64,000 nt of DNA, taken from contig NC_057752.1 of the NCBI RefSeq assembly GCF_004010195.1, forward strand, positions 8,080,317 to 8,144,316, written 5' to 3'. Shown here piece by piece: positions 3,776-61,650 of the stretch. The stretch's first letter is position 1. Each line of letters opens with the position of its first letter. A program made the translations under genes and the position numbers. The notes below the pieces were generated by a model. It was not told the DNA's origin, did no database searches, and saw only the letters and a list, made by a program, of their open reading frames with translations. The DNA comes from Chiloscyllium plagiosum (Eukaryota).

Positions 3776-5214
3776 TTTGTTCTAAAATATTAACGTTGAT
3801 TGGCAAGCATTGGAGCAAAACCTTACGTCTGCTGGTGCAAAGGGCACCAACATCTTGGGCTCCTTCCCGCAACTGATTGCAGGAATTGCTAACCTTAGCC
3901 TGGTTCCTGGTAGGCCCATGAGTTGAAGGATACTCTGACCAAAGCTGAAACTTTATTGCTGGAACAGCACAGTAGGTCAGGCAGCATCTAGGGAACAGAA
4001 GATTCGACGTTTCGGGCACATGCCCTTCTTCAGGATACTCTGACCAGCCTGGCGCAGAAGCAGTTGAGAGTACAGTTCCTCGAACCACACAATTTGAATT
4101 TAATCCTAGTAAAGAATTTGATCTGCATGTAGTTGTTTTGGTCAAATGTGAGGCATGTGGTCTCAATTATTCTGCATACCTTCTGCAGTCCAATGTTTTC
4201 TTGACCAACAGGTTGTCCTGAGATTTGGGTTGAGCTGAGAGAAGAGATTTTGCTGCTTTATGTATCTGTCAAACTATCACCCTAGTTTAGTACTCAAAAA
4301 TAGAATCCATTTAGGGCACCCTACACTTTCATTCCTGAAATTGTAACTATTTAATATTGCTGGTTTTTGTTTTTACAAAAGAGTCTTTACACTTTTGGTC
4401 TCCTTTTGTGGTTGTTTATTTACTGCACATGAAAGAGATTGAATGAATTCTCTTAACAATGGATTAACCATAGATGAAATGGTCATGATTTCCACCATCA
4501 TGATTGTGTTCATGTTTCGGAAGGTGGTGTCACAATGGCAAACGTAATCATTTTAAACTCTTAAGCTGCACAGTCAAATGCTGACAAAACATCTTAGCTG
4601 CAGCCTAATCTTTGTCTTGATGCAGATATGGACCCAAGAGTTGTATACCAAATGGAATGCAAGAGTAGCAAGTATCCTTGACAGCAAGACAGTATTTAAG
4701 TAGGGGAAGTCAATGAAGTATTGGCAAATATGAATTGGAGTGAAGGTAGTGTCCAGTAAGTGCAGTTGTACTTGATGCAAATGAAGTTCTTTGTTAGGTG
4801 GTCATTGTACACTTGGTTTATCGCTGCAAGATGCCATAAGTTTCCTCAATTCAATCATCTTCAGCTGCTCAATTCTGAATTACGTCCACTTGCCAAAGAT
4901 TGAGTGTGGAGCTGTGGCTGCTGATTAATAGTGTATAACTCTCTTCACAGCTCCAGATAATGAAGTAGCCAGTTAGGTTACAGTAGGATGTGGATATCAT
5001 TGGGGCTTGGGACTTGATCAGCCATTTTCTACTGGTCTTGCCTAGATGGCACAGTGGTGGTGTCCCTACCTCTGGACGAGAAGACCTGGATTCAATTCTC
5101 ATCTGCTCCAGAGGTGTGTCACAACATCTTGAGACAGGTTGATTAGGAATACCTATGTTAATGAAGTCCTGCAGAGATGTCCTGGAGCTGAGATGACTGA
5201 CCTCCAATAACCAT
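3776..5214 (+). repeat. Inverted segmental duplication, copy A (partner 60151-61650)
   Basis: Direct reverse-complement comparison. The spurious ORFs 4869-5207 and 4574-4780 recur almost identically at 60158-60496 and 60585-60791. Confidence 0.97.
3942..4031 (-). mobile_element. Penelope-type mini-element with hammerhead core
   Basis: Minus strand CTGAAGA-A-GGGC-ATGT-GCCC-GAAA-CG-TC. Perfect 15-bp TSD aggatactctgacca (3927-3941, 4032-4046). The paralogous site near 61320 is empty. Confidence 0.85.
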
Positions 5215-6381
5215 AATCATCTTCCTTTGTGCCATGTATGACTCCACCCGGTGGCAAGTTTTATCTGATTCCCATTGTCTACAGTTTTGCTAGGGCTCCT
5301 AGATACCACATTTGGTCAAGTGTGGCCTTGATTTTGAGGGCGGTCACTCTCATCACACCACTCGAATTCAGCTGTTTTGTCCATGTTAGAACCAAGTCTG
5401 TGCACCCTAGTGGAACCCAAACTTAGTATCACTGAGCAGGTTATGCCTTAGCAACTGCTGTTTGATAGCACTATTGGTGGCCCTTTCCATCTTTTTTTTA
5501 AACTGGTGATTGACAGTAGACTGATACGGTGCCAACTGGCCAGGTTGGATTTGTCCTGCTTTTGTACACAGGACATACCTGGGCAATTTTTCACTTCGCC
5601 GGATAGATACTGATGCAGTAGCTATACTGGAACAGACTGGATAGGAAGTGGCAAATTCTGCAGCCTAAATCTTCAGTACTATTGCCAGAATGTTATCAGA
5701 GCCCAGATCCTTTGCATTGTCCAGTACCTTCAGCTATTTTTTGGTATCCCATGGAATTAATTAAATTGACTGAACATTGGCATGTGATACTGGAGGCCTC
5801 TGAAGGAGGATGAGATGGATCATCCACTCAGCATTTCTAACTGAAGGTTGATGCAAGTAAGCCTTATCTTTTGCACTGTGTTGAGCTCCCTCATCATTGA
5901 GGATGGGGATAGTTGTAGAACTACAGTTCAAAATATATTATACCAACGAAGTCATGCAACGTCAAAAAATACGCAATGATCTCACCCTGTTGAAATTTCT
6001 AATCCATCACTCGCAATCTTAACCGCAGAAATACAATGCCAAATGTTCGTTCATGAAGAAATGATATTTTTATGTAAGAAACTGAGCTATTACGTTAAAA
6101 TAACTCGCAGAAATAAAATCGCATTTAAAATTCACATTTTTTCTAAGATGCACGCATTTTAGTGATTCTTTTAAATGTTCTTTACTCCTGCAGATCACCG
6201 TAGGAAATCACAAACCCCCTTGCTAGAAAGGGTTAATTAATGTAGCACTAGGACCCCGCGCATCCCTCCCTGTTCAAATTTTCTGACTGAGATTGTAATT
6301 CCCCATAGAGTCAAAAACTTTGCAGCTAAAAAGATTCTTGTACTTTCTACACAGCGAGACTTCCCGCTGTATGCCCCTTAC

Positions 6382-6708
6382 CCAAGCTGGCAGGCTCTTG
6401 TTTGTTCTTTTTCTGGTGACGTTCTCTTCGTTTTCCAGGAGGTAGAAGGCGTCCCTCAGCTTGTTCTGTTTGCTCTGTCTCCGCATTTTCCACCCCATCC
6501 ACAGCATCAGTCCGAAAATCAGAAAGCTCACACTCAGCCCGAAGTAACCGGTTAGATAGATCAACATGAGCCACAGAAGTGTTTTGCTGAAGCGAGTTAA
6601 CAGAGTCATCATGTCGGTAGCAGCGAGACTTGGAACCCCGGCTTCATCAGGGGTCCCGCCAATTGAGGTTGGCACTCCCTCCTCGCGAGCACTGTACTTT
6701 CGATCCAT
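6382..6708 (-). CDS. ESYT1: Extended synaptotagmin-1, first coding exon (109 codons; N-terminus and hairpin membrane anchor). Gene continues left of the window
   Basis: ATG at 6708. Peptide LLTRFSKTLLWLMLIYLTGYFGLSVSFLIFGLMLWMGWK...LLENEE...LPAW matches the ESYT1 transmembrane hairpin and the LPAW motif preceding the SMP domain. A phase-0 donor TGG|GTAAGG follows LPAW. ZC3H10 lies upstream on the same strand, as in mammals. Confidence 0.92.
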
Positions 6709-7350
6709 GGGGTGATTCCGTTTTGTGTTCAATTTGCGCAAAGGAAAGCTTTGTAAAAAAAAAGGCAGGGCGAACAAAGAATTGAAAACAAATAAAGTGG
6801 ACCAGTTTTAGTGAAGAGAACGGTAAGTCATCTCAGTGCGAGCGGCCGGGGTTCCTCCCAAACTGCAGCAGACCAGGTTCCGGAAAATAACGAATCATAC
6901 GATCTCAACACGATTTACTAGGTGTCAGAGATTCGTACGAAAAATCGCGGCCACATTCACCCTGCGTCTGTTCGCAGTAAGAACTGAAACCGAGCTCTCC
7001 TCCCTTTCTCTTATAGCCTCTTCCTAGAGGGCGTTACTCGCGTCTGCATCCTGAAAAAATTCTTTCCTCAGACTCTCTGCATTTTTTTTCCCCAAGAAAT
7101 TTGCAAGTGGCTACAAATCTCAAATTCATTTCTAACCACGCTTTTTCAACTCAACCAAGCAGTCGAAGAAAGCACTTAATTCATACTGTATCCACAGTGA
7201 CTTAGCTGTCGTGTGTTGTTTTTGAAGTCAGAAAGTTTTGCCTCAAATGAAAGACCAGACCCACGCATAAAGGGGTGAGCCAAACCAAACCCTCCAACCT
7301 CCACTTCAGCCGACTGTAAAAAAACTTCCGTCATATCCGTTCACTCGCAT
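6600..7350. promoter_or_regulatory. CpG-retaining promoter region of ESYT1
   Basis: Local CpG enrichment against a CpG-depleted background, around the first coding exon. ETS-like CCGGAA (~6880) and ACTTCCG (~7324). Confidence 0.6.
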
Positions 7351-8274
7351 TTTTTTTAAAAAGTACCATCTTGTTCTTAAACATATTGGTTATCAGCAGT
7401 TTCTCAGTCCCAGCCCATGGTACGATGACAAGTAAATTATTACCTAATTAAAGATCATACTGCATATTTCAAAGGCCAGGATTTATTCCGAAATTGTCAA
7501 TTATGGAGGTTTTAAGGTTGGACACGTAGAGTTGTCAACAGTATAACAACTGAGAGCTATATTCCGTGAAATGGTAAATCAGTTTAGGAATGGTTTTCCA
7601 AGTTTGTCACAATGAAGGAATGTTCCTTTACCCACATTGAAGTGTACTTATGACGGAGGTATCCGTCCAGACATTGTCACGTTATAAAACCAAACTTGAG
7701 TGACACTCCTAAATATGTTACCACCTCACCTCTCCGACCTCCCCCCCCCCCATCCCCCAGCTTCCAACTACGTACCTCACCAGTTCCCGTACCAGCAACG
7801 ACAAAGGTTGTTTCATTCAGGATCTCAAAAGTTATCCACCATTGTCAGAGTTTCCAACAGCTCAAAATCCCAGCCAAAATAATTTATTGCTGATTGTATC
7901 AGTGGCAGTTTTCGTAAAGAAGCATTCACATTCAAACATACTGAATATAGAATATTCTGAACAGCACCGCAACAGGGAAGATTTTTTTTAAAACCCGGAT
8001 ATCTGGTATCAAAATGTTGTTGCTTCTAACTAGTTCTCATCGGTATAGATATTAGCCTTCTCATTCGCAAAAATAGTTTGAATTGTTCTTAGTTGAATCT
8101 GAATGACAAGTTATCACTATAAGCTGTATTACAACAGATGGTTGCCAGCTTTCTATTGGCAGAATAATAAAGAGCTTTTCAGGCTATAATACGCGTTTGT
8201 CTACAGCTGAGCAGTGCGATCAAATATATGCGAGAATATACTATTTCGTGATGCTATAAGTTTAAAAAAGACAT

Positions 8275-8378
8275 TGATGTAGCACCTTTCATGACCTAAG
8301 TTTCCAAAGCCCTTTACAACCAAACAAGTACTTTTAAAATATGGTTACTGTTGCCATGTAGGAAACACAACAGCCCAT
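8275..8378 (-). mobile_element. DeuSINE (SacSINE1/AmnSINE1-related) 3' fragment
   Basis: Matches the recalled Deu-type 3' end (GGCTG..GTTTCCTACA...ACAGT.AC...AAAAGTAC...TGTAAAG.GCTTTGG...GTC.TGAAAGG.GCTA). Confidence 0.65.
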
Positions 8379-8609
8379 TAACAGAGTAGAAAAATTTGTC
8401 GCTGTTGTGATTACAAGTTTTCAGCTAATTCTTTAGTGGAAAAGCCATACTGAAATTGTAATAATGATATTCCCATAACATTATTTTAAACACTGCTCTC
8501 AAATATTTGATATTTATTTAACAATGCCATAGAAATTTCCAAAGTCTGAGTCTGGCAACTTCTCATCTGATCTTCCAAATTTATAGTCACGGTTCATGGT
8601 GCAGGAGGA

Positions 8610-9430
8610 TAGTGCCATTGCAGGAGGACTAGGACAGGCTAGAAGAATGGGCAAAGAAGTGGCAAATGCAATACGATATGGGAAAATGTGAGGTTATGTA
8701 CTGTGGAAGGAATAGAGACATAGTCTATTTTCGAAAATGGGGAATGGCTTTGGAAATCTGAAGCACAGAAACTTAAGAGAATCCTAAATTAGGACTCCTA
8801 AGGTTGACATTCAGGTTCAATTGATGGTTAGAATGCAAATGCAATGTTAGAATTAATTTAAAGAGGGCTAACCTAGAATACAAGAGCAGGGACATAGAAG
8901 ATGTATAAAGCTCTAATCAATCTGCACTCGGAATATTATGAGCAGTTTTGGGCCGCATATCTAAGGATGTGCGAGCTTTGGAGGGGATTCAGGGAGGTTC
9001 ACAAGATTGATCCAAGGAATGAAGGATTTGTCATTGAGCAGTTGAGGACTCTAGGTCTGTACTCAATGGAACTTAGAAGGATGACGAGGAGGTCTGATTG
9101 AAACTCTCATTAAACTGAAAGGCCTGAATAGAGTGGATGTGGAGATGTTTCCATGAGTAGGAAACTAGGACCTGAGGGCACAGTCTGAGTGAAGGGACAA
9201 CCCTTTAGAACTGAGAGGAATTTCTTCAGCCAGAGGGAAGTGAATCTGTGGAACTCATTGCTGCAGAGGTCAAGTCATTGAGTGTATTTGAGAGATAGCT
9301 AGGTTCTTGATTAATAAGGGGATCAAGGGTTACCAGAGGAAGGTAGGATAATGGGGTTGAGAAACATATCTACCACAATTGAATGGTGGATCAGATCAAT
9401 GGGCCTAATTCTGCTACTATATACCTTAAG
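8610..9430 (+). mobile_element. CR1 LINE 3' portion
   Basis: YKALI..HSEY..QFW motif and CR1 3' UTR. Confidence 0.85.
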
Positions 9431-9529
9431 GACATCTTATGGTTATATTGCTGGCCCAGTAATCCAGAAGCCGGAACTAGGGATCTGAAGACAGTTGGTT
9501 TGCTAAATAAAAAAAGTGTTATGCTGGAA

Positions 9530-9727
9530 ACAAATAAAAGACAGGAATTGCTGGATAAACTCAGCAGGTCTGGCAGCACCTGTGGACTGAAGAGTTAATG
9601 TATCAGGTCTAATAACCCTTCTTCAGAACTGTTCTGAAGGCGGCTCCCTGGACCCGACAAGTCAATTCTGCTTTATCTCCATAGGTGCCGCCAGATCTGC
9701 TGAGTTTTTCCAGCAAATTTGTTTTTG
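9530..9727. mobile_element. Older palindromic Penelope-type mini-element (second subfamily), hammerhead cores decayed
   Basis: Imperfect inverted repeat centred on cagaac-t-gttctg (~9630). Arms gctggataaactcagcaggtctggcagcacct / aggtgccgccagatctgctgagtttttccagc. The minus arm retains CTGAAGAAGGGT. Confidence 0.75.
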
Positions 9728-9729
9728 TA

Positions 9730-9930
9730 GTTGGCTAGCTCAATTGGTTGGGTGTCTGGTTCACAATGCAGTGATGTTCAATTCCCGTACTAGCTGAGGT
9801 TCCCATGAAGGACTCTCCTTCTCAACCTCTCCCCTCACCTGAGGCATGGTGACCCTCAGGTTAAACCACCACGCTGTCTCTCTCTGACGAGACAACAGCC
9901 CTATAATCTGATCAGACTATGGCAACTTTT
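9730..9930 (+). mobile_element. tRNA-derived SINE, family not identified
   Basis: tagctcaattggtt A-box, gttcaattcc B-box, internal hairpin cctgagg..cctcagg. Confidence 0.6.
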
Positions 9931-10412
9931 TTTAAAACAGTTGGGGAATTCAAATTTAATTAATCAAAACTGAAGTGATGAAATGTCCAGCCATTTACCA
10001 GCTTCTCGAAGGCCTTACCTGGATACCGATCGGCGAACTGACTGTGGAGTGGACCTGATGTGGTCCCAATGTCCTCCCTGACCTTGTGGTGTACTGACCT
10101 TTGAGGCCCAATCAGACAAAAAGCAAGACCTCCAGAGTGCCCAAGGCTGCAACCAGTGTCCAAGACCCCCAACAGATGCATCCACTCACATTCCAAATGG
10201 CAGACTATCCACACCGCCTCCTGAACCTGACCAGAAGCAGCCACTTACCAAGGAAACGTGCTGACCGACAGATGAGACTGAAACAATGCGGTTTTAAGTC
10301 CCCCTTCCCCAGTATACTCCTTGCAAATGTCCAAGCCATTGAAAACAAGCTGGACAAACTTAAAGCTAGACTCACCTACCAAAGGGAATTGTGTACTCTG
10401 CTATACAGAGAT

Positions 10413-11480
10413 ATAAGACTGTAAGACATAGGAGTGGAATGAAGGCCATTCAGCCCATTGAGTGTACTCTGCCGATGGGCATTTCAACTCCACTTACCCA
10501 CATTCTCCCCATAGCCCTTAATTCCTTGCGAAATCAAGAATTTATCAATCTCTGCCTTGAAGGTTTCTATTAGATCTCCCCTCAACCTTCTGGACTCTAA
10601 TGAATACAATCCCAGGATCCTTAGCCATTCATCATAGGTTAGGCTTACCATTCCAGGGATCATCCGTGTGAATCTCTGCTGGACACACTCCAGTGCCAGT
10701 ATGTCCTTCCTAAGGTGTGGGGCCCAAAATTGGACACAGTATTCTAAATGGGGCCTAACTAGAGCTTTATAAAGTCTCAGAAGCACATCGCTGCTTTTAT
10801 ATCCCAAACATCTTGAGACAAATGACAACATTACATTTGCTTTCTTAATCACGGACTCAACCTGCAAGTTAACCTTGAGAGAATCCTCGATTAGCACTCC
10901 CGGATCCTTTTGTACTGTTTAGAAAATAGTCCACGTCTGTATTCTTTTTCCCCCAAAGTGCAAGGCCATCGCATTTGCTCACAGTCAATCCTCAATCCAT
11001 GCCAGTAGCTCACATTGAACACCATGGGCCCTCACTGTACTCAGCAGCCTCCTGTGAGGCACCTTATTAAAGGCCTTTTGGAAGTCTGGATAGATAACAT
11101 CCACTGAGTTTCCCTGGTCTAACCTACTTGTTACCTCTTCAAAAGAATTCTAACAGGTTTGTCAGACATGACCTCCCCTTACTAAATCCATGCTGACTTG
11201 TTCTAATCCGACTCTGCCCTTCCAAGAATTTAGAAATCTTATCCTTAACGATGGATTCTAGACTTTTACCAACAACCAAAGTTAGGCTAATCGGCCTATA
11301 ATTTTCCATCTTTTGTATTGATCCTTTCTTGAACAAGGGGCTTACAACAGTGATTTTCCAATCATCTGGGACTTTCCCTGACTCTGGTGACTTTGAAAGA
11401 TCACAACTAACGCCTCTCAGCCACCTTCCTCAGAACTCTAGGATGTAGCCCATCGGGGCCAGGAGATTTATCAATTTTTT
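10413..11480 (-). mobile_element. CR1 LINE nested in Rex/Babar
   Basis: NYRPISLTLVVGK..E, QHGFSKGRSCLTNLLEFF, LYKALVRPHLEYCVQFWAP. Confidence 0.92.
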
Positions 11481-12337
11481 AAAAAAAAATATACGGCTTA
11501 CTTCTGCTTCACCTGACTGTACCTTTCAACTGGAAGGCTTCTCAATCCACCAGATAGACCACACAGGGTCCTCGAGTAAGGCAAAGGGGTCTGCCTCCTG
11601 GTGCTCAGACATGACCTTGGTGAGTTACTGCATCCCGGACTGAGAATATTTTATAGTCGGGGCCATTCTCTACTACCTGCCGCAGGGGTTTACTCTGACA
11701 GTAGTTTACACCCCACCCCACGTGGAAGTGAGGAGCATACTTGATGAAATATATATCACTACAAATAGCCTTGAGATGGAATACCCCAAAGCCTTGCTCA
11801 TCATAACCAGTGACTTCAACCAGGCCAACCTCAAGTGCACTACCAAGTTACCATTAACTCATCTCCTGTTAAACAATCAAAGATGCTGACCACACCATTC
11901 GCCACCCACATTTTGGTAAACCAGACCATATGGCTGTGCTCCTTCTCCCAGCTTACAAACAGAAACTGAAGCATAAGGATCGGTACAGAAAGTCATACAG
12001 TGCTGATCTGAGGTAGTAGACCAGCTCCTACGTGACTGCCTGGAGTCAGTGGACTGGTCCATATTCAAGAACTCAGCAGCCAACCAAAATGAGTCTGCCA
12101 CAACTGTCACAACCTTAATCAGTCAGTGTATAGAGAACAGTGTGCCAAAAGAAGTTAATCCGAGTGGTCCCCAACTGGAAACCATGGATGAACCAGGAGA
12201 TCTACTCTCGACTGAAGTCCAGGTTCAACACACTGAAATCGGGTGACCCTGACTTCTACAGGAAGTCTAGGTACGACCTTTGCAAAGCCATTAGAGATGC
12301 CAAGAGACAAAACCAGACTAAACTAGCGTCTCAAACT

Positions 12338-12447
12338 CTGGATCAGTGGTGCTGGAAGAGCACAGCAATTCAGGCAGCATCCGAGGACAGGCAAAATCGA
12401 CGTTTCGGGCAAATCTGGTTTCCAGCATCTGCAGTCATTGTTTTTAC
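12338..12447. mobile_element. Penelope-type mini-element with inverted 5' part
   Basis: Perfect 15-bp TSD ctagcgtctcaaact (12323-12337, 12448-12462). Body is on the minus strand, 3' tail (tctggtttccagcatctgcagtc) on the plus strand. Confidence 0.85.
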
Positions 12448-15410: not shown

Positions 15411-15599
15411 CCTTTCTTTCAACGAACTTGTCACAGGAGCCATTACAGTGCCGAAATTTAGAATGAGCCTCTGATAAAAACCACTCACGCAAATATATCT
15501 CAAAATGTCATGCTTATTTAAGGCACAGAAAACCCAAGATAGCGCTTATTTTTGTTTCTCGAGCTGTTACTTGGGTTGCACTGTGGACAAAGTCAAACC

Positions 15600-23059: not shown

Positions 23060-25200
23060 TTTTTAAAAATTCACTCACAATGTGGGGATCACTGACTGGG
23101 CAAGCATTTACTGCCCATCCCTAATTGCCCTTGAGAAGGTGATGGTGAGCTGCCTACCCACAATATCATCAGGGGGAGGGGGGGTTTGGAACAGCTGCCA
23201 TAGAGGTTGTGATGGTTGGAGGAGGTCAGTCATCTAAAGGTGCCCCTTTTGGTAACGTCCTTGGCCCAACCATTTTCAGATTCATCAATGACCTGCCTTC
23301 CACCACAAAGCTAGAGGTGGGGGGGGGGGGGGGAAAAAAGAGGGAATTCAAGCATTCTGACCCAGCGACACTGAAGGAATGGCTATATATTTCCAAGTCA
23401 GGATGGCGTCCAACTTATACAACTAGGCGCACAAGTAACTTAGTCTCTCGAGCCTACTCCGCCATTCAATGTGATCATGACTGATCTAATTTCTGCCTCT
23501 ACTCCACTTTCCTGCCTGCTCTTCACAACCCTTCAACCATTTACTAATTAAATATAATTTTGTTCATAAATTTACAGCGTTCTAACATCCACTGCACTGA
23601 GGTACTGAATGTCATAGATCTTTGCAGACTTGGAGGGTAACTTGCAGGTGATGGTATTCCCATGCATCTTGCGACAATACTATGGCTTTAAGAGTGTATT
23701 TTGTCCTGGCTTTTTTTGAAGAGAGTTTGAGAGGTGGTGCTGAGTTCTCTTTTCCAAGCCAATAACGTAAACCTCAAGGGGCCCTGGGTTTTATTTTAAA
23801 AAGTTAGAAGCAGCATGAATGGGTACAGTCAGGCTCCCACAGAACCAGGGTTTAGTTTAGCTTTCAGCAGTTGTTGGGGCTTTGAAGTTGGCTGTGAAAG
23901 CGATTATACATCTTTGTTGGTGACAGCAAAAAGCTTTAAGTTCTCTCTCTCTACTGGAATTTTCTCGGTGTTCTGTGCTCCTGGATTGGAGAAACATCGC
24001 ATGTGAGACAATCTATTTTACTGAATTTGTCTTTGCCAAGGGAGTGCTTATGGGATGTTACTATATTGGAACAGTTGCTGATTAGTAGTTAAATAATCTA
24101 TTATTCTACTACGTTTTCCAATTAGAGTTAAAGTTATACCAATTCTTCTTTCTTTTGTTTGCATGTTAATTGGATGCAAGGATAAAATGTGTGTTACTTA
24201 AAGCCAAGTAGCGTGACCAATTAATTGGACTTGGAGCACAGCACCTTACACGAGCCTTTAAGACAGATGAAAGTTCTGGTCCAGGCTCTCTCTTTGATAT
24301 ATTTGAAGGGAATTTGGTCAGCTCCATAACAATCTATTGCCTGCATTCTTCTAGACCATAGGGACTGCAGGTTTGGAAGGTGCTAAGGAAACTTCAGGAA
24401 TTTCTAAGGTGCATCTTATGGATAGTACACACCACTGCTACTGAGCACCAGTGAAAGGAGTGAATGTTTGCAGACATGGTGCCAAACAAACAGGCTACTT
24501 TCCTGGATGGTGTCAAGTTTCTTGAACGTTGCTGCAGTAGAACCCCCCCAGCCAAGTGCAGAGTATTTCAACATACTCCTGACTTGATCCTTGTGGACAA
24601 TGGACAGGCTTTGGGAAAGCAGGTGGGTCAGTTACACACTGCAAGACTCCTAGCTTCTGACTTGCACTTGCAGCCACAATAACCCAAGATGTTGATAGCG
24701 AGGGAATTCAGTGATGACAATACTACTGAATGTCACGGGGAAATATTAGATCCTCTCTTGGAGATGGTCATTGCCTGGCACTAGTGTGGCATGAGTGTTA
24801 CTTGTCACCTCCCACCTGGTGATTGTCTAGATCTGGCTGCTTTTGGAAATGGACTGCCTCAATATCCAAGTCATCTCAAATGGCAAACATTATGCAATCA
24901 TCAGCGATTATCCTCACCTCCAGCTTTATGATGGAAGGAAGATCATTGATGAAGCAGCTGAAAATGGTTGGGCTGGGCCAAGGACATTACCCAAAGGAAC
25001 CCCTGTAGAGATGTACTGGAGCTCAGATGACTGATCTTCAACCATCACAACCATCTTCCTATACGCCAGATATGACTCCAACCAGCGGAGAACTTTCCCT
25101 GGTTCTTACTAATTCATTTTGCTCGAGGTCCTTGATGCCACACGCAGTCAAACGTAGCCTAGATGCCAAGGGCAATCACTCTCACCTCAGCACTAGAAAT
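23060..25200 (-). mobile_element. Nested CR1/L2-clade LINE fragments, including a CR1 3' end (~23430-23620) and a solo LTR
   Basis: Colinear with 2540-3449 and 5168-5360. A short plus-strand RT piece (VLGPTIF.FINDLP) lies at 23205-23320. Confidence 0.8.
23670..24331. mobile_element. Solo LTR (662 bp)
   Basis: TG...CA termini (TGCGAC...ATAACA), 4-bp TSD ATCT (23666-23669, 24332-24335). The host LINE resumes on both sides. Confidence 0.85.
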
Positions 25201-25353
25201 CATGATTTGATGTTGTTTTAACTGAAATTATTGAAAGTTGAAACTGTGTTTCCACCAGGGCACAATGGTAAAAGCTGCTGTGCATTGATATTACTGCTCA
25301 GATAAGAACAAGTGTCAAGTCTTAATTCTACTGAATAAAGCTGTTCAGTGGAT

Positions 25354-36389: not shown

Positions 36390-37229
36390 TTACTCCCAAA
36401 GTCCCCTTGTTTTAAGTCCTGGGGAAGTGCAGTGGCCAAATCTCCCAGCCGTTGTTGTGGGCAAGGAATTCACCATTGCTGCCTTTATTTGGTTGCGGAG
36501 AAATGCATTCTGCTCCAAAAGAACCTCATTGTTACCCATCAAATTTGACACCTGCTTTTTCAGCTCCTCATTCCGGTTTCGCAGCATAAGATTCTCCTCT
36601 TCCAGATATCCTGAATCAACCGACCGGCGACTTGAGAGATCGTATTCGTACACTTCAAACTCAAAACCTTCCAACTTTCTCCTCTTCAAACGGTGGTCAT
36701 ACTCATAGCAAGTGATACCACTATCCTTATCCGATCGTTCATATCTACGCAATGGCTGAGAAAGTGGGGTGTCCCGTGTCAGTCTGAGATCATGTTCTGC
36801 ATTATCACGCTTGAAGTGCCGGAATCTACATTTTGAGCCTCTTTGACAATCACCTTTTAGGTAATCTCGGCATACTGGAATCTCACCTTTATCCGCAGGC
36901 AGATCAGAAACTGACAGACCATAGGTTTCAGCCACCTTGGAGCGCAAATGCAGAGGAAGCTCCCCTGTTTTTTTGTAGTATTCCTCATCCTCTGCTGTAC
37001 CGTGTATGAATGTGCACTTTGCACGGGTACAAACATTATTCATAAAGTAATGACAGAAGACAAACTCATTCTTTTTCACACCTAAATCATGTACCTCATT
37101 TATGTCCGGGTGCAGGTATTTGCAGGTCTTGCCGCGATAGCAGACATTGCGCAGGTAGTCCCGGCAAACGTCTTCTGTGCTCTGGCCAGCCCCGTCTTTG
37201 CCATTGTTAACAACATTATTGTCTGCCAT
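36390..37229 (-). CDS. ZC3H10: Zinc finger CCCH domain-containing protein 10(-like), 279 aa, single main coding exon
   Basis: Three CCCH fingers (CRDYLRNVCYRGKTCKYLH, CHYFMNNVCTRAKCTFIH, CRDYLKGDCQRGSKCRFRH), family linker YKKTGELP, basic LKRRK and coiled coil LEEENLMLR..EELKKQVSNL..NEVLLEQNA. Strong Kozak AAAATGG at 37229. Acceptor ttcttcttttgcag starts the exon at 37263. Confidence 0.93.
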   Translation of the reverse strand: MADNNVVNNGKDGAGQSTEDVCRDYLRNVCYRGKTCKYLHPDINEVHDLGVKKNEFVFCHYFMNNVCTRAKCTFIHGTAEDEEYYKKTGELPLHLRSKVAETYGLSVSDLPADKGEIPVCRDYLKGDCQRGSKCRFRHFKRDNAEHDLRLTRDTPLSQPLRRYERSDKDSGITCYEYDHRLKRRKLEGFEFEVYEYDLSSRRSVDSGYLEEENLMLRNRNEELKKQVSNLMGNNEVLLEQNAFLRNQIKAAMVNSLPTTTAGRFGHCTSPGLKTRGLWE

Positions 37230-37263
37230 TTTACCGATTATTTCTGCGCTGCTCAACAAACAA

Positions 37264-37290
37264 CTGCAAAAGAAGAATGAATCATGTCAG
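37264..37290 (-). promoter_or_regulatory. 3' splice acceptor and branch point for the ZC3H10 coding exon
   Basis: Minus strand reads CTGACatgattcattcttcttttgcAG|TTG: branch-like CTGAC, pyrimidine tract, CAG. Confidence 0.75.
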
Positions 37291-42578: not shown

Positions 42579-45500
42579 CTAGGCAAACCAAATCAAAAGG
42601 CAAGGTGACAAGTATAAATCAAAATAAAAAGGTTGAATAAGACACAAGCATATGTACCTCTTAGTGACTTGAATAGAGCCACAAAACTGAAAAAAAATCT
42701 ACTTACTTCTTTATTACAGAGTTTGGAGAACTGCTCTGGAGATGCTCCATTGGACCTAATTTTCATAGTAATAAAAAAGGCATGTTATACCACCTAAGTG
42801 TGTAGCATAGGAGTTAATAATTCATTTGAAGCAAGATAACACAATCCAGAATAATCAAAGAAATAACATTACCTACATTGTAAGGTGTTTCGTATTCTTC
42901 AAATAAAAGTATCCTTCATATACCTCAAGAGAGCCCACGTTACCTACATGGACACAATCCCTTCAGGTGTTTCACTTTGATGTTGCTGCTCATGAGCTTT
43001 TTCCCATCCAGTACCCACATAGACACCATTCATTTGATGTGTAATTTTCCATAGCAAGTAGAACAAAAGGGTAATACATGATAAAACAACATATTATTGC
43101 GCTATGTAGATATAGAAACACACAGGAAATAACAAGGCTTTTGTTAAAAATGGTCCTCTATCAACGCTTTAAGTATGAAGACTGGATATCATAAAAATCA
43201 CTATCACATTTTCAAGAAACATTACATGTTACCAAACATTAATGGTCAAATGGAGAACAGAAAAGAACATAGTCCTACTGAACAAGAGAACCACTCTTCA
43301 CAATGAAAGAGAATTGTCACATGATCAAAATATGGCACCCTCATGCCATAATTTAAAAAGGTCTTGTGTTTGCTATTCCCAAAACGTGTTTGTTTTCGTT
43401 TGGCTGATAATCTGGAATTGTTCCTAGTAGTAGCAAAGATACCCAAAATGAGACAGAATAACCAAAAATCTGCAACTATGAAATAAACAAAGTACAGGAA
43501 AAAAAACTCAATAAAATGTAAATTCAAAGGAGTTTACTCTGAAGGAAGTAAACTCCCTCCCCAGTATCATGACAAATGTTGAATGATTTTGCTTCAATTA
43601 ACCACTTGTTTGCTTTTTGCCTACAGCTTAGTGCACCAAGTGAAATCTAACAAAAGGTATTACAATCACATTTTTAAGACATTAATGCATATTTAAACCT
43701 ATCCAAATTTGTCAAACTTTCCTTCAGGCGTGAAGCACAAATTGCCAGAATACATCAGCAGCTCCCAAGTAAGTAAACATACGAAGTAGCGCGAGACAGG
43801 CCAGGAAGGCATATCAGAAGAATTGTTCTGTAATTAAATGGTTGAAGTTGGATGAAATCATTGTTAAACATAGCGTTCGCCAAATAATTATGAATTGGAC
43901 ACGCTGATACGCACTTTCACCCGAGACCAAGAACAACTGGAAAGACTGAGCATCAATATTACAAAAGGTGCAATTAGGGTTTCAAGACAGTTTTCAGTAC
44001 AAGCGTCTTCAACGTTTTAAGAAACCTTCTACTTTCAGTGTTGTTGTATATTAAGAACATCAAGTTAGAAATCCTTTTTGTGGCACTTTGGTTCATGCAC
44101 AAAGTTCCATTATTGCATGTCACTCAACTTGTACACAATCCTTTCCTATCCAAGATTCAACTCTTAAATCAGTACTTCAAATCCTCAAGCCTGCTTTTGC
44201 AAGGAATCTCATACCTCAAACCCAGATACAAGCTAACTTTTTTTCTGATCGCAGATACTAATAAATGGGTAGTCATTTTCTGGCCTGCCCAGCATATTAT
44301 TTAAAAACAAATGGTCCCAGGCTTTAGCAGCTGCTTGTAAGAAGTGCCACACAATGCTCAAAATAGCAACATTGAAGATATTTCCATCTTTAAGATGTTT
44401 AATAACAAACATTGCAGTCCATACCCGGGCATGCCCAATATACAGTTAGCTGAACTGGCTGGATCTCGCAATCTACACTAAATGCTAAAAACTACTGGGC
44501 CAAGTATCGTATTAGATTTAAATGACCTGGATTATTCCTTTCATACCCTTGGTATTTACCAAACCTAAATAAACCTATATCCCATTATATATGCAGTAAT
44601 GACAAATCTACTGAGAGGAAAGAGAAAGAATAATTTATATTAAGGCTTTAAGCTGCTGTAACAAAATTTATTTTTGGCTTCCTTTCTTGATGGAAGCTTT
44701 TAAGGTTTAAAAGGTGGTAGAGTGAAGAATTGTTGGAGAACAAAGGTTTTGGAAATGCGAGAAGTAGCAAGATGGATTAACCTTCCAGAGGTCAGGGCAG
44801 TGACTAGAGGATTCTGCCGTCAAAGAAGGAATGGAACAGGAGTATGGTTAAACTGACATTGTAACAGGTTCCCTCATGCAAGAGAATGCCCTTCCTTCAA
44901 AATTGCTGTTACTCCATGCTTTAAAAACATGAACTTACCCTCAGCAACTGTGTCCTTCAAACAGTAACTCTCAGGCACCTGTCTTTCTTGGATGTGTTGC
45001 CATCTCCCAAATCCATGCTAATCCTTTTGGATATCTGCCTGAATCTGCCAGTGTGTGTCTTGGCTACTCCCACATCAAAACACCTTCAACCACAGGTACA
45101 ATTAAGATTCTCTGCAACTGTTACTACTACTGGGGCATTATCCCTCCGATACAACCCTCCACCAAATTGGTCTAGTTTTGTGGCATTGGATTGCCTAGTT
45201 CCACTGTTTCCGATTCAGCATACCAGGAAGATCTTCTCTTCCTACATCCAATTCAACCACAGATGAGCTGCTGTCATACATTCTCAGTGCAATGACCACT
45301 GACTTCTCCTTTGGATACGAATGCCCAGCTCTACTTTAGCCCATCTTCCATTGAAGCTTTCAGTTCTACTTCATTTTCTCTGGACTCCATTATTCCAAGG
45401 CTCTTCCATTCTACCCAGTTGTTAAACCAGTTTGTAAGACTATAAAATTCTACTGCCTGTTTCATATCCTACACCAAATCCTGACTCTTTAAAATTACTT

Positions 45501-50805: not shown

Positions 50806-51348
50806 GTTAGTTTTATGTACATAGGAAGCAGGAGGAGTAGACATTCAACACCTCAAGCCAAATCAGGTATTCACTAAGATCATCACTGCAGTCTGCGTGT
50901 TGTAGGTAAACCCACAATGCTAGGGGAACTCTAGGATTTGACATAGTGACAGTGAAGAAACTGCATTATATTTCCGAGTCAGGGTGGTTAGTGGCTTGGA
51001 GGGAATACCATCTGCAATTCGTCTCCAAGCAACTCACCGTCTTGACTTGGAAATATCAGTTTCTTCACTGTCACTAGGCCCAAACTCCCAGAATTCCTCC
51101 TCTAAGAGCATTGTGGGTCTACCTACAACAAGCAGACTGCGGTGATTTGAGGCAGCAGCTCACCACTACCTTCTCAAGGGCAATTAAGGTTGGGCATTAA
51201 ATGCTGATCAGCCAGCAACTCCCATGAGAGAACAATTTTTTTAACAAATATGCGGTCTTTATATCAGCCATGATCTTAGTGAATACCTGATTTGGCTTGA
51301 GGTATTGAAGGTCTACTCCTCCTGCTTCCTGTGTACATAAAACTAACG
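50806..51348. repeat. Nested inverted duplication built from LINE ends
   Basis: 50806-50883 is the reverse complement of 51270-51347 (3 mismatches). 50882-51005 is the reverse complement of ~51020-51146. Confidence 0.85.
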
Positions 51349-53484: not shown

Positions 53485-53518
53485 CTTTCTTCACACTGTT
53501 GAAATGGTGAAGTCGCCT
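53485..53518 (-). other. Candidate 34-nt upstream exon of ZC3H10
   Basis: tgtatcttttcAG|AGGCGACTTCACCATTTCAACAGTGTGAAGAAAG|GTAAGG. Confidence 0.4.
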
Positions 53519-54393
53519 CTGAAAAGATACAGATGCACTTGTCTAGATGTTCTTTCCCTCCTTGCATCCCCAATGTGTTGAGATCAAGATTAATTGCACA
53601 GTATCCTACTTGTACTCAACATTTCCACATCAGAAAACGTATATTAAAATGATTACAAAGATTTTAATTTTTAAATCAGCAAAACATAAGAACTCGAAGT
53701 ATTATCCCACATTTAACTTGTTTGTAGACATTAGATTTTCCAAAATGTTGCAATCCTTAGCATCTCCGGAGAGGCAACAAGGTTGCTAACAGCAGCCTGT
53801 GTTCTCAAACTGGGATGAGAAGAATCTAGTCTGGATTCTACTCCCAATTGTAATTTACTGTAATCATTCAAGAATAGGTCAAATGCCAGCACAGTTCACA
53901 CGTTTACCAAAATTAATGTCCAAACTCACCATCAAGGGAAGAATATAGAAAACTAATGTAAACAGTAAAATAAATAATCATTTTCCGTATTTCCACCTCA
54001 CTGCTAATGAAAAGCCTGACCATTTGCTGGTAAGAAAACGTAGCAGAGACTTAGGACTTGGAAAACCTCATTGCCAACATAAAAAAACATAACTGCTATT
54101 CTCGAGATCAAAGCTCCAAGACCAATGATGCCAACGCATTGCTTAGTATAGTCTCTTAGTATAGTTCTGGTTGAAGCTAACAGAGGTTGATAAAACAGCA
54201 TCTGTCAGATGATCTATGCATTGGATAATCATTTAGAAGCAACAGCATAACACATTCAGATAGGAAATACCGCATGCAAAAAAAAATGCAATAGGCTGCA
54301 GAATATATCTTTGATATCCATTAAGTGCTTGAGGCAGTTTCCCAGTTTCTCTCTCTAAAAACACAACTCAATGGAACTCCAAAGAAATTGTTT

Positions 54394-57300
54394 GCAGTTT
54401 TCAAGATTTGCAGTTCAGGTTGTAAGTTTCTCTCTGAGCTGGAAGGTTTGTTTTCAGACATTTCGTCACCATACTAGATAACATCATCAGTGAGCCTCCA
54501 GTGAAGTGCTGCTGTTGTGTCCCACTTTCTATTTGTGCATCTTGGTCTCAAGGTGGGCGATATCATTTCTGGTTCTTTTTCTCAGAGAATGGTAGATGTG
54601 GTCCACATCGGTGTGTTGATTGATAGAGTCCCGGTTAGAATACCAGACCTCTAGAAATTCCTGTGTGTCTCGGTTTTGCTTGACCTAGGATGGATGTGCT
54701 GTCCCAGTTGAAGTGGCATCCTCCTTCGTCTGTATATAAGGATACGAGTGATAGTGGGACGTCTTTTTGTGGCTAGTTGGTGTTCATGCATACTGCTGGC
54801 TAGCTTTCTGCCTGTCTGTCTGATGTAGTGTTTGTTACGGTCCTTGCATGGTATTTTATAAATGACATTTGTTTTGCTGGTTGTCTGTATAGGGCCCTTT
54901 AGGTTCATCAGCTGCCATTTAAGTGTGTTGGTAGGTTTGTGGGCTACCACAATGCCAAGGGGTCTGGGCAGTCTGGAAGTCATTTCAGAGATGTCTTTGA
55001 TGTATGGTAATGTGGCTAGGGTATATGGGCTCATTGTGTCTGCTTATTTGGGTTTGTTGTTGAGAAATTGGCAGACTGCTTATATTGGGTACCCGCTGCT
55101 CTTGAGTATGCTGTATCAGTATTTTTCTTCTGCTGTTTGTAGTTACTGGGTGCTGCAGTGTGTTGCAGCCCATTGAAATAATATCCTGATGCATCTTTGT
55201 TTGTGGGTGTTGGGATGATTGCTTCTATATAGTTAAGTATTTGCTCTGTGTGTTACTTTCCTGCAGTCCTGGTTTGAAGTTCTCCATAACTGTTCGTTCT
55301 ACTGTGATATCTAGGAATGGGAGTCTGTTGTCGTTCTCCTCTTTTGTGAATTTTATGCCAGTAAGGATATTGTTGATGCGGTCGTAAGTTTCATCTGATT
55401 TATTTTGTTTAGTGAAGACAAAGGTGTCATCAACGTAGTGGAGCCAAAGTTTGGGCTGTTTAATTGGGAGGGCTGTTTGAGTCTCTGCATTACTGCTTCT
55501 GCTAAGAACCCGGATACTGGTGATCCCACGGGGTGTTCTGTTGATATATTTGTCGGTCTTGTTAGTGAATGTGGAAGCGGGATGTAACACCAGCCCTTCA
55601 CCAGAGGCTCACTGATGTTGTTACCAAGTATGGTGACAAAATGTCTGAAAAACAAACTTTCCAGCTCAGCTATAACCACTATATGAAAATTTCCAAAGAA
55701 AAACCTACTTACACCCTGAACCTCAACCTGAGCTACAAATCTTCTCGAAAACCATAAGCACCTATAGGTGCAATACGCTAAAATTAGCCTGAAGATGGGA
55801 AACCAACGCCATCTGACTGAAGGTCACCCGCGAACAACTGTACTTCCTGCATGAATGCCTCAGGAATCGGGTACTACCAAAATGTCTTAAATACAAACCA
55901 CTGCTCAACACCCCACTAGCCAAAAGAATAACAGAACAGAAAGGCTGCAGAATGTTGAGAGAAATGATTAAAGATGCCCACAACCAATGACACAAATACA
56001 TTGAGGAAATTTCGCACCAAAAAAACTTTTATATACTAACATGACAGACCATGAATGGACAGACATGCTAGAACGAGCCATATGCATCAAACAACAGCAA
56101 ACAATAAATGAAAAAATTAGCCCTACATGAAAAGTTGGACAAGCTCACATTAAAAAGAACAAAGACAACAAAGAGGCTTGGGTCAAAACCTCAGACCAAC
56201 CACTAAGATCATCCAAATAAGAGGGTTAAACTACAATTACAGAGACATGACAAAAAGGACTTCCTAACAGCATTAGGATCAACCCTGAAGGACAATGGAC
56301 TCAAAGAAGAAACCCAGCAGACAAGACAGTTGCACCAGCGTTAAGTGGGAAAAAGGAACGAAACACAGGAAAGCCCTAGAAAGACTCAAAAAAGACAAAA
56401 ACGTTGGCTGCAGGTAGGATTACAAAGGGCGCATGACCGTCATTCTAAATAGAACAGAGTACGTTGACAAAGCAAACTCACTGATCGCAGATACAAACAA
56501 TTACCACTTACTGGCGATAGACCTGAAACCACAACGAGAAAACCATGTCATAGCCACAGTGAAAAGACTTCATGAACCAGGACAAATAAACAAGACAGAT
56601 TTCCAAAAGAAAAAAAAATGAAGCCAGATGGATTCAACACACCCACTTCTACGGACTACCTAAAGTACACAAACCAGGGGGCCCCCTCAGACCCATAGTC
56701 TCACTTACCTGGAACACCGACATACAGACGAGCCAAGGAAATCTACCAAAAACTGAAATACTTAGTAGAAGATTCATGCCACTCCACTCACTCCACCCAA
56801 GAATTCCTGAACACCAAAGACACCAAGATAGAAGACGACAAAATAATTGTCTCATTTGATGGAACAGCCCTGTTCACATCAATCATCAACCAAAACAGTC
56901 AAGGACACAAACACCAGACAGCACCAACTTCATCAGTAAAGACAACATCTTCAACATCCATGTGGCACCACCCACTTCACACTCAATAACAAAACCTACA
57001 AACAAATGACCCATGGGGTCACCAATATCAGGGTTCTAAGCAGAAGCAGCAATGCAGAGACTCAAACAAAAGGCCCTCCCAACTATCCAAACCAAACTTT
57101 GGACTCCACTATGTGAATAACACCTTTGTCATCACAAAATGGAACAAAGTAGATGAAATCTACATCATCAACAATATCCTTACTGGCATAAAATTCACAA
57201 AGGAGGAGAATGACAACAGACTCCCATTCCTAGATATCACAGTAGAATGAACAATTAATGGAGAACTTCAAACCAGCATCTACAGAAAAGTAACACACAC

Positions 57301-58109
57301 ATACACACACACACAGACCAAATACCCAACAACAGAAGCAATTATCCCAACACCCACAAACGAAACTACATCAGGACATTATTTCAATGGTGCGGCACCC
57401 AGGAACTATGAATAGCAGAAGAAAAATACTGATACTTCAAGAATGGATACCCAATAAACACAGTCTGGGTTCGTTGTTGAAAAAAAAACAAACAGACATA
57501 ATGTGCCCAAAAACCCTAGCCACATTACCATACAAAGACATCTCTGAAATGACTTCCAGTCTTCTTGGCATCATGGTAGCCCACAAACCTACAACACATT
57601 TAAACAATGGCTGACGAATCTAAAGGGCCCTATACAGACAACCAGCAAAACAAATGTCATTTACAAAATACTGTGCAAGGACTGTAACAAACATTACATC
57701 GGACAGACAGGCAGAAAGCTAGCCAGCAGTATACATGAACACCAACTAGCCACAAAAAGACATGCCTCACAATCACTAGTATCCTTATATACAGACAAAG
57801 GAAGACACCACTTCAACTGGGACAGCACATCCATCAGAGTCAAGCCAAACAGAGACACGCACGGGAATTCCTAGAGGTCTGGCATTTTAACCAGAACTCC
57901 ATCAATACACACCGATTTGGACCCCATCTACCATCCTCTGAGAAAAAGAACCGGAAATGATGTCACCCACCTTAAGACCAAGACACACAAATAGAAAGCG
58001 GGACATAACACCAGCACTTCAGTGGTGGGTCACTGATACTACCTAGCATGGTGACAAAACATCTGAAAACAAACCTTCCAGCTCAACGAGCAAATTTACA
58101 ACTTGATCC
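54394..58109 (+). mobile_element. Penelope-like element (RT + GIY-YIG), near full length but frameshifted, with pLTRs and a 1.2-kb inverted 5' arm
   Basis: FYGLPKVHKPGGPLRPIVS (~56650), PMGSPISGFLAE, LPFLDITV, NVIYKILCKDCNKHYIGQTGRKL (GIY-YIG, ~57655). Direct terminal repeats ~55575-55670 and ~57995-58085. 54394-55580 is an inverted copy of ~56970-58105 that retains YVDD. Candidate TSD aaattgttt (54385-54393, 58110-58118). Confidence 0.93.
54454..54493 (-). ncRNA. Minimal hammerhead motif in the Penelope pLTR
   Basis: UCA-CUGAUGA-U-GUUAUC(UAGUAU)GGUGAC-GAAA-UG-UC-UGA. Sister copies at ~55610, ~58030 and ~13546 have core mutations. Confidence 0.6.
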
Positions 58110-59767
58110 AAATTGTTTAGAAAATTTCCTGTCTTCCTCTCTCAATTAAGCTTTTCTGTAAAACTTTGAGTTGGATTAAGTTCTAAAATCCAGCAAAAAC
58201 TATAATTCTACCAACACTTCAAAAATGTTATGTAGAAGTCATCAACTGCGATAAACATTGTCAACATGACATCCAGGGTAGTTTAAAGTTGTGGCTCATC
58301 AACTATTTGTTGCATTGAGATTTTGATCAGGGCTTGAAATATCTACAAGAAAGCACAATCTGAACTAGCATAAATTCCCTTCAGACTAAGGAATGCCCTT
58401 GTTGCCTACTGATATTCACCTTCTAAAACTGCTACTGGAAGTCATGACCTGAACTTTTAATTATCTTCACAGATGCTGCCAGATCCGCTGAGCATTTCCA
58501 GCATTGTGTTTTCATTATCCATATTCGAGAATAGGGAGACTACAGCATATGAATCAGCCCAAATGAAGTACCCAAACAGTGACAGGGTATGTTCAAAGGA
58601 AGTAAAGCAAAACTAGCATAGCAAGATTTGCTTGATCAGTGACCAAACCATTGTGTATTGGCCTGGAAGTATTTTATGAACTTTCATAATTACTTACTAA
58701 TTGTCCATGCAATTATTTTATCAGCCTGAATTCAGGAAGCACACAACAATGTGCCCTAATACCCTTTTTTTTGTTTTAGAACTTGAAAATTTGTGAACAG
58801 GACCATTAACTATATTGACTTCAAACCTAATCTAGTCAAGAAATTATTCTGACTCAGAGTTTCTGGGACAGTTCTTTCTTCCAGTCCAAACAGTACAAGA
58901 CTAAAACTTTCAGGAGAACCTTAAATAAGTTGGAACAAAAATGTGGAAAATGTCCAATAGTAAAACAAAACAAACTAACACCAGGTTACGCTTTCTCCTA
59001 CGATCTTACTAATTTCACATCTTCAAATAACTGAAGGTTATTTTCCCTCCTATTCCATGTTTTCCCCAGTCACATTAAAGGTTTCTTTTATTCAATATCT
59101 AACACCCACTGAGTATTTAATTCAACACTTCTTTCAGATGCACACTCACTGTACATTTACATTTTGATAATATTATGTAGGAGTAATGAAAATGGTTTTT
59201 AAAAGCACTTTTTGGTCTCTTACTTCCCTCAGTGTGTCATTCTTGGTGACCATACTTTATTCATCTGGCCCCATTAAGTAACCTTACACATCTTATCCCT
59301 ACATCATAACTTTAATAATATCAATAAGACCTCTCAGTGCCCTCTTGTTGCTTTTGCCTAAATCCAAAGACTTTGAAATCCAAAGTTGGGCAATAACCCA
59401 ATCATGACTGATCTGGTTTTTGCCTCATCACAATTATTTACTTAACCCTTCATAGTGCTTATCCAATATATACCTACTCTTACATTGAGCACCCTCATTG
59501 CTGCATACAAAATCTATTTTTCCACAAAAGGTGGGTGAACAGCTTTCAGAAGAAAATCCTGTGCTGTTTGCTATTATGGACAATGCTGCAATAGTACTTA
59601 ATGCCCATCCTTGGTTGCCTGGAGATGGCCTTAAGTTACTGCAATTCTAAAGATAAGATTTTCATAATTATGAGCAGAAAATTGCAGGATATGCATCAGA
59701 CAACAACTGCCCAAATTGGAACAGTTTAAATTATGGAAGGGAACTTGAAAGTGATATTATCCCTTTT

Positions 59768-60036
59768 TGATTGATTGGATTCCCTACAGTGTGGAAACAG
59801 GCCCTTCGGCCCAACAAGTCCACACCGACCCTCCGAAGAGCAACCCACACAGACCCATTCCCCTACACCTAACACTATGGACAATTTAGCATGGTCAATT
59901 CACCTTTGGACTGTGGGAGGAAACCCACGCAGACACGGGGAGAACTCCACACAGACAGTTGCCCAAGGCGGGAATTGAACCCGGGTCCCTGGCACTTTGA
60001 GGCAGCAGTGCTAACCACTAAGCCACTGTGCCGCCC
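59768..60036 (-). mobile_element. HE1 SINE with internal deletions
   Basis: Reverse complement of the HE1 head, part of the V-domain and the tail. Confidence 0.9.
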
Positions 60037-60150
60037 TTGATATTCTTGTCCATTTCAATGATAGAAGCCCAATGAAGGGAGGTTTTAACGCCTTCTGTAC
60101 ATTGTATAAACTAGCAGCCAAGACCAGAGGTTATCAAGCCTCAAGCCCCA

Positions 60151-61650
60151 ATGATTATTGGAGGTCAGTCATCTCAGCTCCAGGACATCTCTGCAGGAGT
60201 TCATTAACATAGGTATTCCTAATCAACCTGTCCCAAGATGCTGTGACACACCTCTGAAGCAGATGAGAATTGAATCCAGGTCTTCTAGTCCAGAGGTAGG
60301 GACACCACCACTGTGCCATCTAGGCAAGACCAGTAGAAAATGGCTGATCAAGTCCCAAGCCCCAATGATATCCACATCCTACTGTAACCTAACTGGCTAC
60401 TTCATTATCTGGAGCTGTGAAGAGAGTTATACACTATTAATCAGCAGCCACAGCTCCACACTCAATCTTTGGCAAGTGGACGTAATTCAGAATTGAGCAG
60501 CTGAAGATGATTGAATTGAGGAAACTTATGGCATCATGCAGCGATAAACCAAGTGTACAATGACCACCTAACAAAGAACTTCATTTGCATCAAGTACAAC
60601 TGCACTTACTGGACACTACCTTCACTCCAATTCATATTTGCCAATACTTCATTGACTTCCCCTACTTAAATACTGTCTTGCTGTCAAGGATACTTGCTAC
60701 TCTTGCATTCCATTTGGTATACAACTCTTGGGTCCATATCTGCATCAAGACCAAGATTAGGCTGAAGCTAAGATGTTCTGTCAGAATTTGACTGTGCAGC
60801 TTAAGAGTTTAAAATGATTATGTTTGCCATTGTGACACCACCTTCCGAAACATGAACACAATCATGATGGTGGAAATCATGACCATTTCATCTATGGTTA
60901 ATCCATTGTTAAGAGAATTCATTCAATCTCTTTCATGTGCAGTAAATAAACAACCACAAAAGGAGACCAAAAGTGTAAAGACTCTTTTGTCAAAACAAAA
61001 ATCAGCAATATTAAATAGTTACAATTTCAGGAACGAAAGTGTAGGGTGTCCTAAATGGATTCTATTTGAGTACTGAACGAGGGAGATAGTTTGATAGATA
61101 CATAAAACACCAAAAGCTCTTCTCCCAGCTCAACCCAAATCTTAGGACAAACCTGTTGGTCAAGAAAACATTGGACTGCAGAAGGTATGCAGAATAATTG
61201 AGACCACATGCCTCACATTTGACCAAAACAACTACATGCAGATCAAATTCTTTACTAGGATTAAATTCTAATTGTGTGGTCCAAGGTTCTATACCCTCAA
61301 TTGCTTCTGCGCCAGGCTGGTCAGAGTATCCTTCAACTCCACAGTCCAAAAATGTGCAGGTTAGGTGAATTGGCCCATGCTAAATTGCCCGTAGTGTTAG
61401 GTGCAGGGGTAAATGTAGGGGAATGGGTCTGGGTGGGTTGAGCTTCAGTGGGTCGGTGTGGACTTGAAGGGCATGTTTCCACACTGTAAGTAATCTAAAT
61501 CTAAATCCTGGGCCTACCAGGAACCAGGCTAAGGGTAGCAATTCCTGCAATCATTTGCGGGAAGGAGCCCAAGATGTTGGTGCCCTTTGCACCAGCAGAC
61601 GCAAGATTTGCTCCAATGCTTGCCAATCAACGTTAATATTTGAGAACAAA
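60151..61650 (-). repeat. Inverted segmental duplication, copy B
   Basis: Reverse complement of 3776-5214, lacking the 3942-4031 insert and carrying its own HE1 insert at 61340-61507. Confidence 0.97.
61340..61507 (+). mobile_element. HE1 SINE, 5'-truncated
   Basis: Starts at cacagtccaaa and ends in (CTAAAT)n. Absent from the paralogous site at ~3918. Confidence 0.9.

Follow-up and report, generated by a model that had tools for sequence, protein, structure and literature searches.

We found that a 64,000-nucleotide stretch of the Chiloscyllium plagiosum genome (assembly GCF_004010195.1, contig NC_057752.1, positions 8,080,317 to 8,144,316 of the forward strand; the whole stretch is called the window below) contains two inverted copies of a low-copy sequence, copy A in intron 1 of the gene ESYT1 and copy B at the far side of a 55-kb block. 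Its most likely history is an old duplication into this intron, after which non-allelic gene conversion kept the copies alike and the block underwent no net inversion. In a self-BLAST of the window the two copies, on opposite strands, aligned in an outer block of 149 columns (3776-3924 / 61650-61503, 94.6% identity) and an inner block of 1184 columns (4032-5214 / 61332-60151, 97.0% identity, 1967 bits). The best inverted match in 5 shuffled windows reached only 30-36 bits, so the inverted copies described in an earlier note on this DNA are real. Their positions and the insertions specific to each are as follows:

3776-5214, plus strand: copy A, within ESYT1 intron 1 (self-BLAST, alignment).
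60151-61650, minus strand: copy B of the inverted repeat (self-BLAST, alignment).
3925-4031: SINE-like (short interspersed nuclear element) insertion found in copy A only, with a 15-base target duplication and 85-88% identity to its two closest copies in the window.
61333-61502: a different SINE insertion, found in copy B only and absent from copy A.

By global alignment the copies differ at 8 of 149 and 36 of 1184 columns, which makes 44 of 1333 (96.7% identity overall). The homologous length of 1333 columns is less than the spans of 1.4-1.5 kb because each copy carries its own SINE-like insertion; the 1.4 kb given by the earlier note therefore describes the spans and not the homology. Its description of the repeat as mostly non-transposon agrees, as far as the window shows, with the 364 of 1439 bases of copy A which match other repeats of the window. 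The inverted orientation on one chromosome is as read from the assembly, and the window is without any N. Dating the pair from its two copy-specific SINE insertions was too rough and was dropped.

The differences between the copies are unevenly spread, with 23 events in 4032-4399 and 12 in 4400-5214, a degree of unevenness reached in 1e-4 of 20000 random placements. Over the inner 815 bases the copies reach 98.5% identity (no identity threshold being known for sharks), the perfect runs between the copies measure 248, 215, 169 and 116 bases (longest run: P = 0.01) and the unconverted margins are 15-30% apart.

We compared contigs from sequencing runs over positions 2500-7000 of the window (4 of 24 runs, from at most 3 samples and 2 studies); the data are contigs only, none of which spans flank, repeat and flank for either repeat. 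Two of these runs, X14 and X15, come from one sample of a related species (“organism B”); its five flank contigs depart from the window's sequence at 92 of 2370 letters. Two contigs of this species covering 4756-5106 are 17-18 and 26 letters away from copy A over 351 bases, as against 2 differences between copies A and B over the same bases (Fisher: P = 6e-4 for 2 vs 17). The copies are thus closer within the species than between species (2/351 vs 17-26/351), the contigs of the related species being unplaced. Both of these contigs share 6 letters where copies A and B of the window agree (among the letters listed), and at 4081 and 4095 one carries the B-type letters and the other the A-type. 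The related species therefore has at least 2 versions of the repeat and both letter types; as its copies are unplaced, the duplication may or may not predate the species split.

In X14 and X15 the bins of the repeat core (4161-4764) had a depth of 14-120, compared with 19-31 for flank contigs and 1e5-5e6 for SINE bins, and each place was covered by 1-2 long contigs. A high-copy status of the core, at 85% likeness, is certainly excluded, and the possibility raised by the earlier note that the repeat is a high-copy dispersed element can be set aside. In X1 and X3 depth is highest at the ESYT1 start, and it was left out of the copy-number comparison; the letters at 4670 and 4945 in them were read as ordinary alleles. 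Two mixed contigs were considered as inversion recombinants: X1-4, which has A-type letters and leaves copy A at 4032, and X3-28, which is B-type at 4063-4095 and mostly A-type further in. Both were rejected because a 31-base shared word (4032-4062) and runs of more than 100 bases let a 31-mer graph cross between the copies.

Evidence on the orientation of the block comes from an old long interspersed nuclear element (LINE) at copy A:

3157-3448: left part of an old LINE which a 1.7-kb insert has split in two, outside copy A, matching an intact LINE copy at 24683-25000.
5160-5563: right half of the same LINE, which begins inside copy A and passes its inner end, matching 24994-25214 (5160-5387) of that same intact copy, and 46818-46444.

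As the halves lie on both sides of copy A, they represent one LINE split by the insert, and the flanks were formerly joined. In X14 and X15, 305-489 contigs per run from other LINEs end at 5163/5167 with loose ends matching 3416-3448, and contig joints jump from 3327 or 3389 to 5163 or 5167. A single crossover in the repeats would part the two halves, and so the block between the copies carries no net flip in this sequence. The earlier note's suggestion that the repeats are scars of a past inversion is contradicted by the two halves which still flank copy A.

The ends of the copies carry information on the direction of copying:

3742-3765, plus strand: SINE head, repeated at 5046-5069 (20 of 24 letters), which brackets the duplicated core in copy A like an old target duplication.
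61540-61878: old element running through the outer end of copy B, with a 75% paralogue at 63272-63603.
60116-60155, minus strand: diverged remnant of copy B's native sequence, just inside its inner junction, homologous to 4996-5043 of copy A (34 of 40 letters, one 8-base gap).
60151-60319, minus strand: 169 bases of copy A's SINE and a cut-off LINE piece within copy B, apparently copied from A into B.
61651-61690: possible 38-base micro-inversion at the outer edge of copy B (1.3% of 5000 shuffles as good).

The outer flank of copy B continues the old element (score 187 vs 25 for copy A, null maximum 43), and its inner flank is without the LINE (score 22 vs 121 for copy A). The inner remnant scores 44 against the repeat core, a value which 0 of 830 control windows reach. 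No homology was found between the flanks of the two copies beyond the short matches named here. Since older homologous sequence persists at both ends of copy B, B is the likely donor locus and A the insert. Copy B also holds copy A's own SINE and the first 55 bases of its right LINE half, cut off at 60151, suggesting that the 169-base piece moved from A to B later than the first duplication. The paralogue at 63272-63603 is in direct orientation, 1.7 kb from the old element, and is either an old tandem duplicate or a dispersed repeat.

A mechanism consistent with these junctions would begin with about 1.2 kb of the B locus being copied, inverted, into a SINE within the LINE in ESYT1 intron 1. 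The copies would then have paired and repaired breaks from each other without crossover, patchwise, a step which is well supported and which the earlier note had missed; in one A-to-B tract, repair would have overrun the homology, taken copy A's SINE and 55 LINE bases and rejoined B at a few shared letters. The same pairing could also resolve as a crossover, inverting 55 kb. The repeats themselves are most likely without function.

Several observations weigh against this account. The direction and mechanism of the first duplication rest on matches of 24-40 bases, and if the inner remnant of copy B is scored against all of copy A instead of the core, it is equalled by 6 of 830 control windows, all at SINE or LINE copies. 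The micro-inversion at the outer edge of copy B is suggestive only. Across species the B type is tied by only 2 letters among those listed, in one related species and one sample, and the unplaced contigs of that species may not be orthologues of A and B. Depth in the related species is about three times that of the flanks at several places on 4032-5106, with a two-plus-one split of contigs; depth is no copy number, and this hints at a third copy of the repeat there. An even number of flips is also conceivable, as it would leave the same flanks.

The genes in and around the block are represented in the window by three exons:

6382-6708, minus strand: coding part of ESYT1 exon 1 (109 amino acids, membrane anchor), in a CpG-rich start region at about 6000-8250.
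36390-37263, minus strand: coding exon of a short ZC3H10-like paralogue (279 amino acids), with an open reading frame at 37229-36393 and a splice acceptor at 37264.
42707-42755, minus strand: internal upstream exon of the ZC3H10-like gene with AG/GT ends, 12 of 15 amino acids matching a zebra shark isoform (E = 0.002).

The ESYT1 exon 1 coding part ends in a GT donor, and its peptide is 90% identical to zebra shark ESYT1 and identical at 109/109 amino acids to a record named Chiloscyllium plagiosum ESYT1. In a tblastn search with 3 full shark ESYT1 proteins only exon 1 was matched; there is no other ESYT1 exon in the window and copy A hence lies in intron 1, where the earlier note had placed it. 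The Chiloscyllium plagiosum ESYT1 gene model, which may rest on this same assembly, joins this exact exon 1 to the following conserved exons, in one orientation. It should be noted that the ESYT1 record of this species is only 193 amino acids long, vs 1114 in close relatives. The probable cause is a broken assembly or a truncated gene model at a later point in the gene, unrelated to the repeats because the gene model gets past intron 1.

The “ZC3H10 coding exon” which the earlier note reported in the block is present, but it encodes the short 279-amino-acid elasmobranch paralogue, conserved across sharks and rays, and not the 400-amino-acid ZC3H10, which is absent from the window. In sharks and rays ZC3H10 exists as two genes, of 400 and 279-280 amino acids, which are 59-61% alike, the short form being without the C-terminal region, and in several species both forms have records on contigs sized as those of ESYT1. 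The two genes probably go back to an old tandem duplication. From the look of their splice sites only, sequences at 42580-42550 and about 43720-43930 (minus strand) are candidates for additional non-coding exons of the ZC3H10-like gene, and no first exon was found within the window. CpG-rich stretches in the window were confined to the ESYT1 start, the ZC3H10-like coding exon and SINE copies, in agreement with the earlier statement that no second CpG island is visible in the block. A lysine/arginine-rich RPL41-like peptide was looked for in six frames and not found.

The locus is probably X-linked in the shark, by analogy with known gene positions: the shark X has been reported to be homologous to part of human chromosome 12 (10.1101/2022.10.17.512540), Nabp2 is reported on the bamboo shark X (10.1101/2025.03.13.642935), and human NABP2, ESYT1 and ZC3H10 are reported within one 12q13.2-13.3 deletion. 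The names ESYT1 and ZC3H10 are absent from the main text of two shark sex-chromosome preprints. Flank depth in the related species equals that of scattered LINE contigs (20.8/19.9; 26.1/26.7), which neither supports nor excludes X linkage.

ESYT1 and the ZC3H10-like gene are both on the minus strand, and human ZC3H10 and ESYT1 are also described as a same-strand pair (PMC2953495, PMC6262175). The geometry of the repeats permits a crossover which would leave ESYT1 exon 1 facing away from the exons that follow it, as had been proposed. After such a flip every exon of the block would read on the plus strand; ESYT1 would be cut after exon 1, and probably the ZC3H10-like gene too if its promoter lies outside the block; it is plausible that the ZC3H10-like exons would be parted from their promoter, one internal upstream exon (42755-42707) being inside the block. 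As both genes are on the minus strand, a flip joins no exons inside the window. It would be a loss-of-function event and not an exon switch, and inverted alleles should be rare and selected against. A programmed recombinase switch was considered and rejected: the window holds a single match resembling a recombination signal sequence (RSS), at 15585 and far from both repeats, RSS being the only signal searched for, and a flip that connects no exons in the window gives no productive join. Rare gene-breaking inversions at this locus are plausible because the geometry is that of F8 intron 1 (int1h).

We weighed three other explanations of how the pair came to be. It is unlikely, though worth considering, that the sequence is a low-copy mobile or dispersed segment and that template switching recently produced copy B from A in one step, without a long history of conversion. 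The hint of about 3 copies in the related species, the 24-base repeat which brackets the core in A and the abrupt stop of copy B within A's LINE all fit such an event, but copy B keeps older homologous sequence past both its ends, identity between the copies is patchy, and both letter types occur at 4081 and 4095 in the related species. The repeat also gave no Rfam match, has no long open frame and shows only weak end hairpins. A long terminal repeat element was dropped for 3449-5159, which is without TG...CA ends. Helitrons are marked by a strong hairpin before a CTRR end and by insertion between A and T. A Helitron-like element was rejected here: CTAG is present, but the hairpins are weak (-1.4 and -2.1 kcal/mol), the next letter in copy A is an A, and the homology extends past the supposed start. 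We regard as very unlikely a fixed past inversion, in which staggered breaks, or a duplication followed by one crossover, left inverted duplicates at the breakpoints. Inversion by staggered breaks leaves an asymmetry of the ends, and old repeats do pass through the inner end of A and the outer end of B in that manner. However, the outer side of A still carries the left half of the LINE whose right half passes A's inner end, and A's flanks therefore adjoined before the insert; copy B's inner flank is also homologous to the repeat core, the human genes likewise stand on one strand in the order ZC3H10, ESYT1, and the gene model with this ESYT1 exon 1 runs on into exons 2 onward. The least probable of the three by our estimate, and one that the earlier note had also considered unlikely, is an assembly artefact in which one copy, or its place or orientation, is wrong. 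No read or contig ties B to the chromosome position of A, and the gene model which ends after 193 amino acids hints at a nearby assembly break. The copy-specific insertions, the 44 differing columns, the presence of all 8 B-type letters at 4063-4095 in one contig of run X3 and the lack of any N in the window argue against it.

A separate question is whether the 55-kb block occurs in both orientations among living sharks, as a standing or recurrent inversion polymorphism, to which we give a slim chance. The conversion evidence indicates that the copies have paired before, with inner 815 bases 98.5% alike and perfect runs of 248, 215 and 169 bases, and mice without all three Esyt genes are reported to be viable (10.1101/2019.12.12.874933), so that an inverted allele need not be lethal. 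Against this, a flip would break one and probably two conserved genes, and in Table 1 of PMC3961182 those validated human inversions that measure 46-95 kb carry repeats of at least 9.5 kb; in the same table, human repeats of 1.6 kb flank an inversion of 7 kb. A similarly remote prospect is that a recurrent inversion segregates in bamboo sharks, disables ESYT1 together with the short ZC3H10 paralogue on what was the old shark X, and is exposed in XY males. If true, sharks would have a natural equivalent of the intron 1 inversion that causes haemophilia A, and fold-back pairing of the unpartnered X would be the source of both conversion and inversion.

Other repeats were also seen in the window. 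An older inverted pair at 54415-55581 / 58106-56971 (80%, self-BLAST) contains degenerate reverse-transcriptase-like and GIY-YIG-like peptides, which we take to be Penelope-like; no Pfam family was found in the 3 peptides tried from this pair. There is a 35-base tandem duplication at 62442-62515 (94%), and a 78-base inverted pair at 50806-50883 / 51347-51270 (96% alike, about 390 bases apart, self-BLAST), possibly the ends of a small DNA transposon.

An old duplication homogenised by gene conversion can be compared with several known systems. The F8 int1h repeats are about 1 kb long, with conversion between copies. As in F8 int1h (Inv1), one shark copy lies in intron 1 and the other, inverted, outside and upstream of the gene, so that a crossover separates exon 1. 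The sequences int1h-1 and int1h-2 are reported as almost identical and about 126 kb apart, with the inversion accounting for 1-5% of severe haemophilia A cases (PMC7507428), whereas the shark pair is 96.7% identical overall with two insertions, is spaced by 55 kb and is known in the reference orientation only. In primate X palindromes the copies are closer within species than between species, which has been read as gene conversion (PMC8327919). The shark pair shares this within-species closeness with those palindromes and the FLNA-EMD inverted repeats, and is probably X-linked too. Their arms, however, are many kb long, more than 99.8% alike and often gene-bearing, with spacers which flip freely and cut no gene, unlike the short, non-coding shark repeat inside a gene.

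In one-sided invasion (coupled homologous and non-homologous break repair) one end is homologous and the other non-homologous. The A-to-B tract has one homologous end, while the other continues beyond the homology and stops at a few letters in common, although unlike in the experiments the shark case is inferred from one fixed junction. The IDS / IDS2 inversion of Hunter syndrome likewise involves short intronic homology with an inverted copy outside the gene; there the outside copy is a pseudogene with exons, whereas the shark repeat holds no ESYT1 exon.

Literature searches on this locus and on repeats of this type in sharks gave no paper on the locus, most subscription journals being outside the search. 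The pair appears to be an intronic inverted low-copy repeat under gene conversion, of a known type and, judged from sequence alone, potentially invertible. Only the discovery of inverted alleles in living animals would give the locus more weight. Inversions that break genes could arise here on rare occasions, and assemblies from short reads may err at this site. The pair also provides an example, from a shark, of non-allelic gene conversion in which one junction records the direction of a tract.

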